From NCBI GenBank assembly GCA_041180165.1, contig JBEGSC010000003.1, positions 92,902 to 156,901 on the forward strand: 64,000 nucleotides of DNA. The letters run 5' to 3'. Below, piece after piece: positions 42,029-48,803 of the stretch. A model generated the notes under the pieces. That model was not told the origin of the DNA, ran no database searches, and saw only the letters and a program-made list of their open reading frames with translations. How positions within the stretch are numbered: position 1 is the stretch's first letter; every line of letters starts with the position of its first letter. This DNA comes from Pseudomonadota bacterium. GTDB taxonomy: Bacteria > Pseudomonadota > Gammaproteobacteria > Burkholderiales > Burkholderiaceae_C. The position numbers were made by a program, and so were the translations under genes.

Positions 42029-42622
42029 TTACAACTTCAAAGCTTCCCACACGCGATACGCAGCATACGCATCGTTGGCGGCGTAAACCAGCTGTGATTC
42101 GCTCAAGCGCAAATTGGCCCAATTGCTGGTGGCGGCCTTCTTTGACTTTTGAAAACGCTGGTTGAACAGCACAGCCACTGCGCCTTTGACGCCCATTTCT
42201 TTGCGATAGCCCTGGGCTTTGAAAATGGTGTTCAGTTCCAAAATGCCCGCAGGCTCCACACCAAATTTTTGGATGATGCGTTTGCGGTCGTCTCCCAAAC
42301 CAAAGCCTGCTTTGGCAATGCCTTCGCGCGCTAACAAGTCGGCAGCCACAGCGCGGCACTCGGGGTCGTGCAGCTGAAACACCCAAGCGCGTTCGCCCGT
42401 GGCGAGTTGCAACACATGCGGACCGTCAGACGCTTCGCCCACGCGAAAGGTCGGCTTCGATTCAGTGTCAAAACCCCAAGCGTTTGAGGTGATCAACGCA
42501 TCGTGTGCGAGCTGCGCTTGTTGGCCGGTGTTGACCAAGGTGATGCGGTCAAGCCCCAAACGAGGAAACTCTGGAAGCAGGGCGATGGCTTCTTTGTCGG
42601 GAGTGTCGCGGCGTTGTGTCAT
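42029..42622 (-). CDS. 3'-5' exonuclease (DEDDy, WRN/RNase D-like)
   Basis: GFDTESKP, LQLAT, SNW..L.ESQLVYAANDA. Confidence 0.9.
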   Translation of the reverse strand: MTQRRDTPDKEAIALLPEFPRLGLDRITLVNTGQQAQLAHDALITSNAWGFDTESKPTFRVGEASDGPHVLQLATGERAWVFQLHDPECRAVAADLLAREGIAKAGFGLGDDRKRIIQKFGVEPAGILELNTIFKAQGYRKEMGVKGAVAVLFNQRFQKSKKAATSNWANLRLSESQLVYAANDAYAAYRVWEALKL

Positions 42623-42634
42623 GTGTGGCTGATC

Positions 42635-43573
42635 TCAACGCTTCTTAGATTTGAACGCCGTTTTCTTGTTTTTCTCAATCGCCTCTTTGCGCACGGCGCG
42701 TTCGGCATCGGCTTGTTTGCCTTCGGCCAACCAAGCGGCAAATTCTTCTGGCGTTTCTAGCGTGATGCGCCCCAATGCGGCTGAGCGGAAATCGTGAATG
42801 ACGATGTGCGCGGCTTTGGTGAGGTTAATACGCCCACCGCTTTGCACCGCGCCGCGTTTGCGGCCAATGGCCTCCAACATTTCTTCGTCGGTGTGGCTGG
42901 CCACGTCGTCGATGGTGTAGCGCTGCTTGAGCTCGTTGGGGTAGTGCGGGATGAGATAGTTGAGCAACTCAAGCGCGACGGTTTCTTCGTCAAACGCATT
43001 CACGCCAATCGCGCCGCTGGCGGCGAGGTTGAAGCCGCTTTGCTCAACGATGATGCGCGGCCACAGCACGCCGGGCGTGTCGTACAAATAAAAGTCATCG
43101 GCCAAGGCAATGCGCTGTTCTGTTTTGGTCACGCCAGCTTCGTCGCCCGTCTTGGCGGCGCGTTTGCCTTTGAGCGTGTTGATGAGGGTGGACTTGCCCA
43201 CGTTGGGAATGCCGCAAATGAGCACGCGCATGGGCTTGACCATGCCGCCACGGTTGGGCGCGAGTTGTTGGCAAGCCTCAATCAATGCTTTGGCGGGGGA
43301 CGTCATGCTGGTGTCCAAGCCAATGGCACGCACACCGGGCATGGCGTTGTAGTGGGCCAGCCACAAGGCGGTGCGGGCAGGGTCTGCCAAATCTTGTTTG
43401 CTCAAAATCTTGAGCGCGGGTTTGGTTTTGATCAGCTCGGCCAGCATCGGATTAGCGCTCGAACCCGGCAAGCGGGCGTCGAGCATTTCGATGACAACGT
43501 CAATCTCTTTGATGCGCTCCCCAATCGCCTTGCGCGTGAGGTGCATGTGTCCGGGGAACCATTGAATAGCCAT
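42635..43573 (-). CDS. rbgA: Ribosome biogenesis GTPase RbgA/YlqF
   Basis: MAIQWFPGHM, LDARLP, GIPNVGKST, DTPGVLWP (circularly permuted GTPase). Confidence 0.96.
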   Translation of the reverse strand: MAIQWFPGHMHLTRKAIGERIKEIDVVIEMLDARLPGSSANPMLAELIKTKPALKILSKQDLADPARTALWLAHYNAMPGVRAIGLDTSMTSPAKALIEACQQLAPNRGGMVKPMRVLICGIPNVGKSTLINTLKGKRAAKTGDEAGVTKTEQRIALADDFYLYDTPGVLWPRIIVEQSGFNLAASGAIGVNAFDEETVALELLNYLIPHYPNELKQRYTIDDVASHTDEEMLEAIGRKRGAVQSGGRINLTKAAHIVIHDFRSAALGRITLETPEEFAAWLAEGKQADAERAVRKEAIEKNKKTAFKSKKR

Positions 43574-43588
43574 AGCCTTGATTGTCGT

Positions 43589-44323
43589 TCACGCGGCGTG
43601 GGTGGCTGCCTGCAATCGCAGATGCACGTCATCGGCCAAATCAACGGGCAGTTGTTGCTTGGCTTTGAGGTAGTGCTCGGTGAACACTTCAAAGTAGGCG
43701 TTGAGGGCTTCGGCGGCTTGCGTGTCATCAGCCATCGCCAAACACATCGCACCCACTTCGGCGGTGCAAAGGTGCGCTTCGCTTTGAGCACGACGCAGTT
43801 TGTAGCGTGAGAGTTGTTCGGGGTGCAGGCTGAGCACTGGAAAGTTTTGCAGATAGGGGCTTTTGCGAAACATCTTGCGGGCTTCGTCCCATGTGCCGTC
43901 GAGCAGGATGAACAAGGGGCGCTTGGTGTCGTCGTGTTTGACCTCATGCACCACGCGTGCATCATCGGCAAACTCAGCAGGGAACACCACATAGGGTTGC
44001 CATTGCGGGTCGTTCAACAACGCTAACAGTGCAGGGTCAACTTCGGTACGCGCCCAACCAAACGCAAAGGTATCGGCCACCACATCGGCAATAAGCCAGC
44101 CGGTGTTGCTGGGTTTGAGTGGCTCGATGTCGGCCATGAGCAAACACATGCCTGCGCGTGTGGGCACATCGGGGCGCAGAGTGCAGATGCAGTGGGAGGG
44201 GACTAAGCGGCAGCCGTTGCAGCGTTCACCTTTAGGGCCGCCACGGGCTAGAAAGGGTTTGACGCTGCGGGCGAGGCGGGCTGCGCGTAGGCGAGCAACC
44301 GCGTGAGGTAAGTCAGCAGACAC
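43589..44323 (-). CDS. tapT: DTW-domain tRNA-uridine aminocarboxypropyltransferase (TapT/YfiP-like)
   Basis: CxxC..CxC zinc motif, KPSNTG, LDGTW.EARKMFRKS, LCTAEV. Confidence 0.88.
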   Translation of the reverse strand: MSADLPHAVARLRAARLARSVKPFLARGGPKGERCNGCRLVPSHCICTLRPDVPTRAGMCLLMADIEPLKPSNTGWLIADVVADTFAFGWARTEVDPALLALLNDPQWQPYVVFPAEFADDARVVHEVKHDDTKRPLFILLDGTWDEARKMFRKSPYLQNFPVLSLHPEQLSRYKLRRAQSEAHLCTAEVGAMCLAMADDTQAAEALNAYFEVFTEHYLKAKQQLPVDLADDVHLRLQAATHAA

Positions 44324-44326
44324 AGC

Positions 44327-45529
44327 TTAGTCCGCCACATTGCACTCGCGGCGCAACAGCGCCAGTGCATCATGCAGTTTGTAGTCGTGGTCGCTCTCAA
44401 GCGTGTCGAGTGATTCATCGATGAAGGCTTCCCACATGTCGATGTAATCGTCTTGATGTTCAGCCGGTGCATTGGCTTGGATGAACGCGGTAGCTAACTC
44501 GGGTTGCACGCCTGATTTACGAATTTTGCGAATCAGCGTGGCAGCGGTTTTTTCGGTCAGCAGTGTTTTGCCTGTGCTGCCTGTGGCGATGCACAAAAAG
44601 AGGGTGAGCAGCGAACTGTCGTCGCTGTGGCCCCCCGTGGCTTTGGACCATGCGGCAGAGGTTTGACGGTCAAAGTGATCGACCTCAGACAAGCCGTCTT
44701 CCACCCAAAAGTAGCGGCCTACAAATGCGGGTGTTTGGTTGAACAACTTTTGCGGTGTGAGTTTGGCATCCAAAATTTTGGGTAAGTCAGCCTCAACGCT
44801 TTGTCGCACTTGCTCGACGGCAGCTTTGAATTCAATGGGCAAGTTTTTAGGCGCAGCCAAGTTGATGGTTTTAGTGGCGCTCGGCTTGCGCAAGGTGGCG
44901 ATGATTTTTTGAAAGGCCACCCAGTCTGGCATCTCTTTGTGTTTGGTGGCAGCTGCCAACAACGCCGTGCGAATGACGGCCTCGGCATCGCAGCCCGCTT
45001 CTTCTAAATCATCGGCGTGCAGGCCGAGTTGGTCTGCTAGCCAAATGGCGGCGTCGATGACGTGCGCCACTTGTTGGCGCTTGGCCAGCTCGGCTTGGTA
45101 GTCAGCCAAATTGCACAGCGACCACTTGGCCAATTGTGGGATGTGTTTGTCGCTGAAGCCGCCGTGTTCGTTCATGCCAAAGTGCGTGTTTTGCGGCATG
45201 ACGATGAGGGCTTTGAGCATGTCTGATGCAGCCTTCGAGCGCGACATGAATGAGTTCTCGCGCAAATGCTCGGCAGCTTTGCGCAAGTCGCCACCGCTTT
45301 GAATTTCAAGCGTGAGGCTGACCAAGTTGACGATGCGGTCTTTGGCTTTTTCTAACTCTGGGCGCAAAAACTCGCTGCCAAAGTAACGCGCAATTTGCAC
45401 CATGCCTTTGGGCGCATCAGTTTGAATGGCTTCTAACTTTGCAGCGTCCAAGATGCCATGTTGCACGCCGTAGGCAAGCGCCTTTTCAAAGAAAGGGCGG
45501 TCATCAAAGATGGCGATGGATTGCGTCAT
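44327..45529 (-). CDS. atcC: AtcC-like protein (assigned by synteny), 400 aa helical hypothetical
   Basis: Third and largest hypothetical gene after the PX7W J-protein; synteny inference only. Confidence 0.55.
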   Translation of the reverse strand: MTQSIAIFDDRPFFEKALAYGVQHGILDAAKLEAIQTDAPKGMVQIARYFGSEFLRPELEKAKDRIVNLVSLTLEIQSGGDLRKAAEHLRENSFMSRSKAASDMLKALIVMPQNTHFGMNEHGGFSDKHIPQLAKWSLCNLADYQAELAKRQQVAHVIDAAIWLADQLGLHADDLEEAGCDAEAVIRTALLAAATKHKEMPDWVAFQKIIATLRKPSATKTINLAAPKNLPIEFKAAVEQVRQSVEADLPKILDAKLTPQKLFNQTPAFVGRYFWVEDGLSEVDHFDRQTSAAWSKATGGHSDDSSLLTLFLCIATGSTGKTLLTEKTAATLIRKIRKSGVQPELATAFIQANAPAEHQDDYIDMWEAFIDESLDTLESDHDYKLHDALALLRRECNVAD

Positions 45530-45543
45530 GGTGGCGAGTCAGC

Positions 45544-46299
45544 TTAGATCGCGGATTCTTCGTCAGAGTCACGCGCAGCGGGTGTGGCTTGGCCGCGGTC
45601 GGTGGCGCTGGTCTCGACCTTGCCATCGTCTTCTTCATCTTCTTCGTCGGAGAGGCCTGCATCAAACGCGCGTGCTTTGGCGCGCAGCACCAAGAGCATC
45701 TCGATGAAGAGGTCTGGAATTTTGTGGCGCAAGATCCAAGCGAGTTGCATCCAGTCTTGGTCGGCCACTTCGTCTTCTTCGACTCGGGGCTTCACATAGG
45801 CCGAGCCGAGCAGGGCGCTTTCAGACAGCATGTCACCGTCGTCTTCCATGGTGTCAAACGTGCCGGTGCGGGCGAAGGCTTCGATGCGGCTCCACTTTTC
45901 GCTGAAGTAATCGGCCAGCGCTTCAGCGCCGCCCTCCAAATCGCCAATCGCGGTGAGGAACTCAATCGGGTCTGCGTCTTCACGAAAGATGATGGAATTC
46001 ATCATGCCGCGCAAGTGGGTTCGTGTGAGGTCTTTGTATTGTTTTTCAATCACCACGGCACGCGCAAATTGCTCGGGCGTGACCAAGAGGTTGATGACCG
46101 ATTCTTTAGACGTGTCGTACTCACGAATGACGGCCAAGATGTCTTTGGGCGGCAGCTGCTCCAGCACCACCATCAAGGCTTGATCGCCCTCAGCATCGGC
46201 CAGCTCGACCAGCGCAGCTTCAGCGCCTGTGATGTCGCCTGCGGCAATGAGGCTTTGTGTTTTGGTGATCAGTGCAATGGCATTGGTTTTGTCGGTCAT
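45544..46299 (-). CDS. atcB: AtcB-like protein (assigned by synteny), acidic 251 aa
   Basis: Second hypothetical gene after the J-protein; highly acidic C-terminus; synteny inference only. Confidence 0.55.
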   Translation of the reverse strand: MTDKTNAIALITKTQSLIAAGDITGAEAALVELADAEGDQALMVVLEQLPPKDILAVIREYDTSKESVINLLVTPEQFARAVVIEKQYKDLTRTHLRGMMNSIIFREDADPIEFLTAIGDLEGGAEALADYFSEKWSRIEAFARTGTFDTMEDDGDMLSESALLGSAYVKPRVEEDEVADQDWMQLAWILRHKIPDLFIEMLLVLRAKARAFDAGLSDEEDEEDDGKVETSATDRGQATPAARDSDEESAI

Positions 46300-46311
46300 G
46301 GGGTCACCTGT

Positions 46312-46854
46312 TTATTCTTTGCTGTCGAAGCCTTGTTCAACCATCCACGCGTTGCCTGCTTCTTCGCGTTCGCGGGCCTCGCGCTCTTCGTCCGATTCGG
46401 CTTGGTCGCCGCGTTCGACGTTTTCCAAGTCTTCATCGGCATCTGCGCTATTGGCGCTGCGTCGCATCGGCGTGCCGTGCATGTACTCCAGGGCTGCGGC
46501 CACGCTCATGAACCAAGCGCCCACAGGTTCAGCCAAGATTTTGTCGACGATGGGTTGTGCCCAAGGTGCAATGCGCACGCCTTCAGACAAGGTATCCCAA
46601 CTCAGCAAATCATCGGCATCCAAGGTGATGAAGTGGTCCATCAACTCGGGCTCATGGAACTCAAAGGCTTGGTGCAACACCACAGCCACCATCTCGGGGC
46701 TGAGATCCATCATCTGCAACAGGAACTCTAGCTCTTGGCGCTTTTCAGCCAAACGCTTGTCGAGGATGTAGTGGCCTTCTGAATCTGAGTTCAGATCGTC
46801 CAGCTCGGCTTGGTAAGCCGTGCGCAGTTCTTGGAAAAAAGGAGAAATGCTCAT
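46312..46854 (-). CDS. atcA: AtcA-like protein (assigned by synteny), acidic 180 aa
   Basis: First hypothetical gene after the J-protein; acidic tail ending W..EQGFD; synteny inference only. Confidence 0.55.
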   Translation of the reverse strand: MSISPFFQELRTAYQAELDDLNSDSEGHYILDKRLAEKRQELEFLLQMMDLSPEMVAVVLHQAFEFHEPELMDHFITLDADDLLSWDTLSEGVRIAPWAQPIVDKILAEPVGAWFMSVAAALEYMHGTPMRRSANSADADEDLENVERGDQAESDEEREAREREEAGNAWMVEQGFDSKE

Positions 46855-46884
46855 GGTGTGTGGGCCTGTGCCTGTACGTGCGAG

Positions 46885-47169
46885 TTAGGAGCGGTTTAGC
46901 ACTTGCTGAAAATACGCGCCCCAAATCTCGCGTGCAGTTTGCGCGGGGTCGTCCAACAAGTTGCGGCGACGGTTGTCGTCATAGGCTTTGCGTTTGTCGT
47001 CGTCTGACAGCACGTCGTAGGCCTCTTGCACCTCGCGAAAACGTGCAGGTGCATCGGGGTCGCTGTTGCGGTCGGGGTGAAACTGCGAGGCTTTTTGGCG
47101 AAACGCGCGTTTGATGTCCGACAGCGTGGCATCGCTTTTGAGACCTAAGGCGGCGTAGTGTTCAGACAC
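46885..47169 (-). CDS. atcJ: Short J-domain co-chaperone, AtcJ-like (94 aa)
   Basis: HYAALGL..IKRAFR..HPD..F.EVQEAYDVLSD..KRKAYD; tail PAQTAREIW matches PX7W. Confidence 0.8.
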   Translation of the reverse strand: MSEHYAALGLKSDATLSDIKRAFRQKASQFHPDRNSDPDAPARFREVQEAYDVLSDDDKRKAYDDNRRRNLLDDPAQTAREIWGAYFQQVLNRS

Positions 47170-47203: not shown

Positions 47204-47728
47204 TTAAAGTGATTGCTTTAGGCGAATTTCTTCCACCTTGACAGGGCCCATGGGCACAGTCTTGGCGCTCGACATTTCGCGTTTGAAACCCGCCAGTTCG
47301 TGAAAGCGCATGGCGCGGTCGTTGGCGATGGGAACCCAGATAGACACATGGGTGCAGCCTTCGTCTTGCAGGCCTTCGCGAGCAGCATCCCACAAAGCCA
47401 AACCTACGCCTTGGCCCCAGTAAGCGGCATCGACATAGATGTCCCAAATTTCACCCATGGTGTTGGGCGTGCCTTTGTCGCGTGAACGGTCAAAGCCAAC
47501 AAAGCCAATGATCTTGCTGCCATCCACGGCAACTTGCACTTGGGGCTCAGCAAATTCAATAGCTTCGCGCCAGTAAACGGTGTTTTTTTCTTCGGGGACG
47601 GGCAAGACTTTGCTACCCGTTTGCATGGTTTTGAAAGCTTCTTTGGCGGTGGCTGCGTACAGCTCGGCGATTTTGGCGGCGTCGCGCATCGTGGCGGGAC
47701 GGACTTCAACAGTTGTCAGGTCGGACAT
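47204..47728 (-). CDS. GNAT family N-acetyltransferase
   Basis: IYVDAAYWGQGVG (Q/RxxGxG), N.RA.RFHE..GF. Confidence 0.9.
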   Translation of the reverse strand: MSDLTTVEVRPATMRDAAKIAELYAATAKEAFKTMQTGSKVLPVPEEKNTVYWREAIEFAEPQVQVAVDGSKIIGFVGFDRSRDKGTPNTMGEIWDIYVDAAYWGQGVGLALWDAAREGLQDEGCTHVSIWVPIANDRAMRFHELAGFKREMSSAKTVPMGPVKVEEIRLKQSL

Positions 47729-47849
47729 TCGGGGAACAATTCAGATTTCAGTAAAGCCCGCTATTGTCCCAGTAAATCTAGCGCGGCTCAGAGTTGGGTA
47801 GAGTAATGCCTTCGCTGCGTGCAGCCTTCTTTGTCTAACTCCCAAATCC

Positions 47850-48803
47850 ATGCTCATTCTTGCCCCAATGGAGGGCCTGCTCGACTTTGTGCTGCGCGAC
47901 GTGCTGACCCGTATTGGCGGTGTGGACCGTTGTGTGTCAGAGTTCATCCGTGTCAGCGGCACCTTGCTGCCCGAGCGCACGTTTTTGCGCATCGTGCCCG
48001 AGCTAACCAACGGTGGCCGTACCTTGGCGGGCGTGCCTGTGCGCCCACAGTTATTGGGGTCTGACCCCCAATGTTTGGCTGATAACGCGGCACGTGTGGC
48101 GGGCATGGGCTGCGATGGGGTCGACCTCAACTTTGGTTGCCCCGCCAAACAAGTGAACCGCCACGGCGGTGGCTCGGTGCTGCTCCAAGACCCCGAGGTG
48201 CTGTACCAAATCGTGCGAGCCGTCCGCGCTGCTGTGCCAGCCCACCAAGTGGTGTCGGCCAAGATGCGCTTGGGCTTCAATGACGACAGCACAGCCGAAG
48301 AGTGCGCCTTGGCGTTAGAGGCGGGCGGTGCCAGCGAAATTGTGGTGCACGCCCGCACCAAGGCTGACGCGTATCGTCCGCCCGCGTATTGGCACCGCAT
48401 TGCAGATATCAAGGCCAAGGTGAAAACACCTTTGGTGGCGAATGGCGAAATTTGGAATGTGCAAGATGCCTTGCAAGCACGTGCTGAGTCGGGTTGTTTT
48501 GACTTGATGTTGGGGCGAGGGATGGTTGCGAATCCCGGACTGGGTTGGGCCATTCAAGCGCACGACGCTGCAGCGCAAGGTTTGCCCGCACCCTCTGCGC
48601 CAGTTCAATGGCAAGATCTGCCGCCGCACCTATACACGTTTTGGCAAATTGTGTCGGGCCATGTGAGCGAGCGGCACAGGGCAGGGCGCTTGAAGCAGTG
48701 GTTGAACTTTTTGCGCAAGCATTACCCCGAGGCAGAGGATGCTTATATGCACGTGAGGACCTTGACCAGCCCCAAAGACATAGATGCTTGGTTTGCAAAA
48801 TAA
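47850..48803 (+). CDS. dusC: tRNA-dihydrouridine synthase C
   Basis: LAPMEG, EFIRV, DLNFGCP, SAKMRLG, VHARTK..YRPPA, ANGEIW. Confidence 0.9.
   Translation: MLILAPMEGLLDFVLRDVLTRIGGVDRCVSEFIRVSGTLLPERTFLRIVPELTNGGRTLAGVPVRPQLLGSDPQCLADNAARVAGMGCDGVDLNFGCPAKQVNRHGGGSVLLQDPEVLYQIVRAVRAAVPAHQVVSAKMRLGFNDDSTAEECALALEAGGASEIVVHARTKADAYRPPAYWHRIADIKAKVKTPLVANGEIWNVQDALQARAESGCFDLMLGRGMVANPGLGWAIQAHDAAAQGLPAPSAPVQWQDLPPHLYTFWQIVSGHVSERHRAGRLKQWLNFLRKHYPEAEDAYMHVRTLTSPKDIDAWFAK

Follow-up and report, generated by a model that had tools for sequence, protein, structure and literature searches.

A probable Limnohabitans-type ortholog of the atcJABC co-chaperone operon in a Burkholderiales genome

A 64,000-nucleotide stretch of the Pseudomonadota (Burkholderiales) assembly GCA_041180165.1 (contig JBEGSC010000003.1, positions 92,902 to 156,901; hereafter the window) carries on its minus strand four closely spaced genes which we assign, with a probability of about 0.9, as a Limnohabitans-type ortholog of the atcJABC operon. 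The reference system is that of Shewanella oneidensis MR-1, in which AtcJ, AtcA, AtcB and AtcC are SO_1850, SO_1849, SO_1848 and SO_1846 (Maillot et al. 2019, PMC6715715). An earlier note on this DNA had proposed an AtcJ-AtcA-AtcB-AtcC-like identity, and this identity is upheld by the present analysis, as the four proteins or their families map to the matching Atc models in gene order. The note had also held that the identities of the A, B and C proteins rest on synteny. We find that homology and motifs support them too, because the families match the Atc models, B contains the aspartate pair D39-x22-D62, A has an acidic tail and J contains a PX7W motif. The four genes are as follows.

46885-47169, minus strand: atcJ, 94 amino acids, GTG start; class C J-domain protein
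46312-46854, minus strand: atcA-like gene, 180 amino acids
45544-46299, minus strand: atcB-like gene, 251 amino acids
44327-45529, minus strand: atcC-like gene, long form, 400 amino acids

The open reading frames described earlier (94, 180, 251 and 400 amino acids at 12-30 bp spacing) are all present, with intergenic gaps of 30, 12 and 14 bp for J-A, A-B and B-C, respectively. The description of two of the three proteins following J as very acidic also holds, with isoelectric points (pI) of 4.23 for A and 4.22 for B; that of C is 5.5.

Assignment of the four proteins

The proteins were compared with four NCBIfam models trained on the Shewanella group, namely NF050028 (AtcJ, 93 positions), NF047888 (AtcA, 178), NF047889 (AtcB, 252) and NF047890 (AtcC, 297). 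The AtcJ, AtcA and AtcB model lengths agree with those of J, A and B, and C is longer than its model. Since direct matches lay far below the narrow equivalog cut-offs, families were tested and not single proteins. Diverse relatives of B were collected by an exhaustive search (187 cluster representatives at an expect value, E, of 1e-3 or better), and operons were gathered from Burkholderiales genomes. When family members were scanned singly, 9 of 20 A-family members matched the AtcA model (best E 6.9e-7; alignment A5), 16 of 34 B-family members the AtcB model (best E 8.5e-5) and 17 of 18 C-family members the AtcC model (best E 5.8e-6). Other models were matched by at most three members each in the scans of the three families. 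Homology to Atc therefore appears, at the level of sequence profiles, to be remote yet consistent, one-to-one and in the same gene order.

The J-domain of J is clear (Pfam DnaJ, E 7.6e-24, residues 3-64), with HPD at residues 31-33, and leaves a 30-residue extension that contains the C-terminal tail motif P75-AQTAREI-W83. The match to the AtcJ model (61.6 bits, cut-off of 150 bits not reached) runs over profile positions 1-93 of 93 with the tail included, unlike general DnaJ models, which end at about J residue 65-70. AtcJ proteins are described as about 94 amino acids long, with HPD and a C-terminal extension of about 21 residues bearing a PX7W motif whose tryptophan is essential for AtcC binding (NCBIfam NF050028). 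This motif is retained in the great majority of the roughly 100 J tails examined. The earlier picture of a minimal J-protein with intact HPD, ending in P-x7-W, needs one amendment: HPD is intact, but PX7W lies near the end of J and not at it, because 11 residues come after W83.

The A protein (net charge -28) comprises a globular N-terminal part of about 125 residues and an acidic, disordered tail, with 18 Asp/Glu among the last 55 residues and the end AGNAWMVEQGFD. An Asp/Glu-rich disordered C-terminal region has been described for AtcA (10.64898/2026.09.07.749886; hereafter the preprint), and the gene lies between those for J and B, as for atcA, the second gene of its operon. The sequence profile of A found no solved structure and the ESM Atlas comparison returned unnamed clusters only. 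Weak matches of A to HTH_Tnp_2 and MzaB (E 0.003) were judged to be noise.

The B protein (net charge -30) is all-helical; its tail is acidic and its C-terminal tip reads DEESAI. Residues D39 and D62, 23 apart, show conservation of 90% or more among 34 diverse relatives (alignment A1) and the Asp-x22-Asp pair is kept in 27 of the 28 loci compared. Two AtcB aspartates are needed for binding of the RpoC basic helix, the pairs being D37/D60 (Shewanella), D28/D51 (Collimonas arenae) and D33/D56 (Janthinobacterium sp. B9-8) according to the preprint, and the spacing of D39/D62 equals this published spacing of 23 residues. An AlphaFold2 model of B is all-helical with a mean predicted local distance difference test (pLDDT) score of 87 and a predicted template modelling (pTM) score of 0.80. 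It resembles ESM Atlas clusters carrying Pfam AtcB_N and AtcB_C with TM scores of 0.60-0.68 over 177-194 residues, both sides of the comparison being predicted structures. The models are consistent with B sharing the AtcB fold. For B, neither a Foldseek search of the PDB (threshold E 1e-3) nor the sequence profile found a solved structure, and the clusters of ten distant B representatives bore no informative names.

The C protein matches the AtcC model over residues 10-93, aligned with profile positions 10-93 (E 2e-4, 21 bits; cut-off 370), and a six-frame genome search with the same model found window C at E 7.6e-5. Residues 1 to about 275 form a core common to 290-residue forms of the protein, and residues from about 286 to 400 form an additional helical domain with invariant W294, D303, P355 and W366. 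Alignment of long with short AtcC by hhalign gave 98.1% probability over residues 36-274, and in the AlphaFold2 model (pLDDT 87.3) residues 279-285 are a linker of low confidence. Outside Shewanella, AtcC exceeds 298 amino acids considerably (the preprint), and window C has the long form that betaproteobacteria typically show. Foldseek found no match for C in the PDB at E 1e-3 or better; its sequence profile found no solved structure and the ESM Atlas comparison gave nothing usable. A weak match of C to DUF6178 was judged to be noise.

A predicted path from DnaK to RNA polymerase

The complex prediction that had been suggested earlier for the J tail and the 400-residue protein was run with J residues 58-94 and our own alignments as input. 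It scored 0.75 against 0.00 for the best control; a score of 0.75 was attained by 58 of 80 solved complexes and by 2 of 110 mismatched pairs. Contacts agreed between runs to 91% or more, and the partner pLDDT was at least 74. In the predicted interface, residues 70-94 of J meet residues 15-67 of C, with W83 contacting C residues 36, 39, 40, 43 and 63, and this docking stretch is the part of C best conserved with Shewanella AtcC. Foldseek against the PDB and sequence profiles found no solved relative of B or C that the complex model could have memorised. The prediction supports binding of the J tail to the N-terminal helical domain of C.

Taken over from published work on the Shewanella, Collimonas and Janthinobacterium systems, the following mechanism may apply to the window copy. 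AtcJ would stimulate DnaK through its HPD-bearing J-domain, and its helical C-terminal tail (P75-x7-W83) would dock on AtcC at its N-terminal helical domain. AtcC would in turn bind AtcB, which through D39 and D62 would bind RNA polymerase at the basic helix of beta'. DnaK, brought by AtcJ-AtcC, would then limit the inhibited AtcB-polymerase complex, so that transcription is tuned; in Shewanella the outcome is growth in the cold. AtcA, with its acidic disordered tail, would be an accessory protein. For the window copy we infer AtcC-AtcB binding, AtcB-polymerase binding and a cold phenotype from these systems.

The genome that holds the window also encodes DnaK (872 bits). Close relatives of B go by the name Limnohabitans sp. 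in public records, and the best named locus, with a B 98% identical to window B, is that of Limnohabitans sp. Jir61. Deletion of the KKLTKR helix of E. coli beta' abolishes AtcB binding (the preprint); in Jir61 the beta' helix reads KKNAKR at the position of E. coli KKLTKR, residues 215-220.

In every locus with a long AtcC the C-terminal tips of both acidic proteins are conserved, as (D/E)EESA(L/I) in B (45544-45564 in the window) and as AGxDW(L/M)xEQGFD in A (46312-46350). These tips look, by sequence, like short docking motifs. A tentative and rather doubtful proposal is that the extra domain of long AtcC (about 286-400) is the receptor for the A and B tips, which are found only alongside that domain. 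If it were so, the position of AtcA in the complex would be defined, and long-form systems would possess an interaction absent from the Shewanella model.

Genomic setting and alternative readings

RNA-related housekeeping genes flank the atc operon (42029-44323 and 47204-48803), and the gaps around atc are 3-34 bp. The neighbours are listed below.

42029-42622, same strand as atc (minus): 3'-5' exonuclease gene
42635-43573, same strand as atc (minus): GTPase gene, 50S ribosome-binding type
43589-44323, minus strand: DTW-domain gene (Pfam DTW, E 9.6e-59), its start 3 bp downstream of atcC
47204-47728, minus strand: GNAT acetyltransferase gene (Pfam Acetyltransf_1, E 1.9e-17), its end 34 bp upstream of atcJ
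47850-48803, divergent from atc: Dus tRNA-dihydrouridine synthase gene

Further along, a minus-strand open reading frame of 303 amino acids at 40286-41197 matches no Pfam model at E 1e-3 or better.

Wherever the contig extends far enough, the J-A-B-C order is found, with similar protein lengths, in all 80 loci of named Comamonadaceae (Limnohabitans, Rhodoferax, Polaromonas) and in 13 loci of other Burkholderiales families, a total of 93. The GNAT and DTW genes adjoin atc only in loci of the Limnohabitans clade; they are lineage-specific neighbours, outside the conserved module. Relatives of B occur in at least 578 species genomes. In an even sample 28 of 401 Burkholderiales genomes have one, and within the window's own family the count is 42 of 295 near-complete genomes (26 of 166 genera). 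They are common in metagenome-assembled genomes (MAGs) whose record titles name Polaromonas, Rhodoferax or Limnohabitans, which is circumstantial support for a role in growth at low temperature. Scanning a class-level sample of 401 genomes with the AtcC model gave no match besides the window's own. A scan of a genome collection with the most Shewanella-like B subgroup gave no match, and a second scan found Comamonadaceae only.

The tight packing of these genes raises the question of whether GNAT-atcJABC-DTW, perhaps together with the GTPase and exonuclease genes, is a single operon that would tie Atc to the maturation of tRNA or ribosomes. The genes share one strand with gaps of 34 bp (GNAT-J), 3 bp (C-DTW) and 15 bp (DTW-GTPase), no terminator-like site lies between the GNAT, atc, DTW and GTPase genes on the minus strand, and the arrangement is retained across the loci of the Limnohabitans clade. 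The flanking genes are, however, not beside atc in Rhodoferax, Polaromonas or other Burkholderiales loci, and co-transcription would not entail a common function. Freshwater metatranscriptome contigs from four studies (about 90-270 nucleotides) cover the entire stretch at 92-99% identity, with DNA carry-over possible; such contigs give neither strand nor level and are too short to show a single transcript, and no evidence of expression was drawn from them. A promoter and terminator scan found sites no more frequently than expected by chance. We regard the larger unit as unlikely and keep the four-gene atcJABC operon as the module.

Several observations weigh against assigning the locus as atcJABC. 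All Atc matches, direct and family-level, are far below the equivalog cut-offs. Comparison with Shewanella Atc, which had been put forward as a check and was made with the NCBIfam models, gave direct, sub-threshold matches for J and C, but neither window A with NF047888 nor window B with NF047889 gave a match even at E 10, their families being what matches. Our literature search found no experimental work on any Comamonadaceae atc copy. The rpoC gene was not found in the window's assembly (1.87 Mb, 19 contigs, 78% complete), so the beta' helix was checked in the close relative only. Lastly, certain AtcB proteins fail to bind E. coli RNA polymerase (the preprint), hence homology alone is no ground for assuming binding.

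The locus might accordingly be read as a different J-protein system with only the architecture of Atc, its DnaK targeted elsewhere than RNA polymerase. The missing model matches of window A and B would fit such a system, as would the restriction of the C match to residues 10-93 and the extra C-terminal domain of C (about 115 residues), which short forms lack. Yet the families match all four Atc models one-to-one and in the right order, with nothing else recurrent, the Asp-x22-Asp pair has the published spacing, and the fold of B is similar to that of the clusters carrying AtcB_N and AtcB_C. Moreover, the preprint counts betaproteobacterial operons with long AtcC as Atc and, for two of them, demonstrates binding to RNA polymerase. 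We therefore consider a different system highly improbable.

It is equally improbable that the module is chiefly a toxin-antitoxin-like growth-arrest or defence device and not a cold regulator, with AtcB a polymerase-inhibiting toxin restrained by AtcC, AtcJ and DnaK: overproduction of AtcB is indeed toxic, an effect relieved by AtcC, AtcJ and DnaK (the preprint), but no credible defence-system model matches (the sole match, A to MzaB, being noise), the G+C content of the atc region is that of its flanks, the operon is single-copy among housekeeping neighbours, its inheritance is vertical and congruent with the species tree (the preprint), and Shewanella deletions of atcJ, atcB or atcC give a cold-growth defect and not lost immunity.

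Variants and comparison with known Atc systems

Among the collected loci, a second Burkholderiales subtype (L100-L106; G518, G562, G735, G617, G795, G647 and G531) has a J of about 97 amino acids, with PX7W in four of the seven, an acidic second protein of about 170 amino acids and a B of about 260 that keeps the two aspartates and ends in S(L/M)GxDIFS. Its short C (290 amino acids) corresponds to residues 36-274 of long AtcC in the hhalign comparison given above. Homology of the second protein to window A was not significant by hhalign (probability 3.8%).

Two metagenome contigs of 37% G+C (L005 and L006, 3692-5963) carry an atcA-less set of J (94 amino acids, with PX7W), B (240) and C (376). 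The C gene contains nine in-frame TGA codons and the neighbouring uvrB eight; the J and B genes have none. At two of these codons all Burkholderiales AtcC have glycine in the aligned column, which suggests that TGA is read as glycine (code 25). In our alignment the second aspartate of B is replaced by alanine in these loci. In a further locus (L002, 3172-4587), divergent and of J-A-B type, the C homolog is in two open reading frames of 149 and 180 amino acids, the result of either a frameshift or an assembly error.

The earlier note did not know the module to be characterised in Comamonadaceae. The suggestion that little is known of it in this group no longer stands, since the preprint reports the atc operon in 294 genomes, mainly of Beta- and Gammaproteobacteria and including Rhodoferax (Comamonadaceae), and characterises the systems of Collimonas arenae and Janthinobacterium sp. 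B9-8 with assays of RNA polymerase binding, of rescue from toxicity and of J-C interaction by two-hybrid; Limnohabitans is not named in its text. With the operon in so many genomes and two betaproteobacterial systems tested, the window copy is an ordinary example of a known system and raises no new question. Its main use is in annotation, where relatives labelled 'hypothetical protein' in Limnohabitans, Rhodoferax and unclassified MAGs become nameable as atcJABC. As an abundant freshwater genus that can be cultivated, Limnohabitans would be a sensible host in which to ask whether the link from DnaK to RNA polymerase serves cold adaptation outside Shewanella.

Compared with S. oneidensis MR-1, the window operon has the same J-A-B-C order, a 94-residue J whose HPD lies at 31-33 and whose C-terminal tail bears PX7W, A and B proteins near the lengths of the Shewanella-trained models (178 and 252 positions), two B aspartates 23 apart and a conserved N-terminal part of AtcC. 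It differs in that the similarity is remote and that AtcC has 400 residues and an extra C-terminal helical domain, against 297-298 residues in Shewanella. The AtcJ tryptophan is at position 89 in MR-1 and at 83 in the window J. The host is, unlike MR-1, a freshwater betaproteobacterium with a small genome.

The systems of Collimonas arenae and Janthinobacterium sp. B9-8 are likewise betaproteobacterial, with a long AtcC, a J of about 92 amino acids and the two-aspartate motif in B; W83 of the Collimonas J is the counterpart of W83 in the window J. They belong to other Burkholderiales families; the proteins compared, assigned to the published strains by residue numbering only, are about 31-55% identical to those of the window. 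In one of the collected loci (L097) B has D33/D56 and the J tail has alanine for tryptophan in an I-A-x-x-Y pattern, as published for B9-8, a likeness to that strain that rests on residue numbering only. The window proteins match those of this locus at E values of 1e-32 (J), 4e-38 (A), 2e-42 (B) and 1e-55 (C).

The atc operon of Rhodoferax differs from that of the window in the GNAT and DTW neighbours that the Limnohabitans clade has added. It belongs to the same family, Comamonadaceae, and shares the J-A-B-C order, and B proteins from Rhodoferax and Polaromonas MAGs are 78-87% identical to window B.

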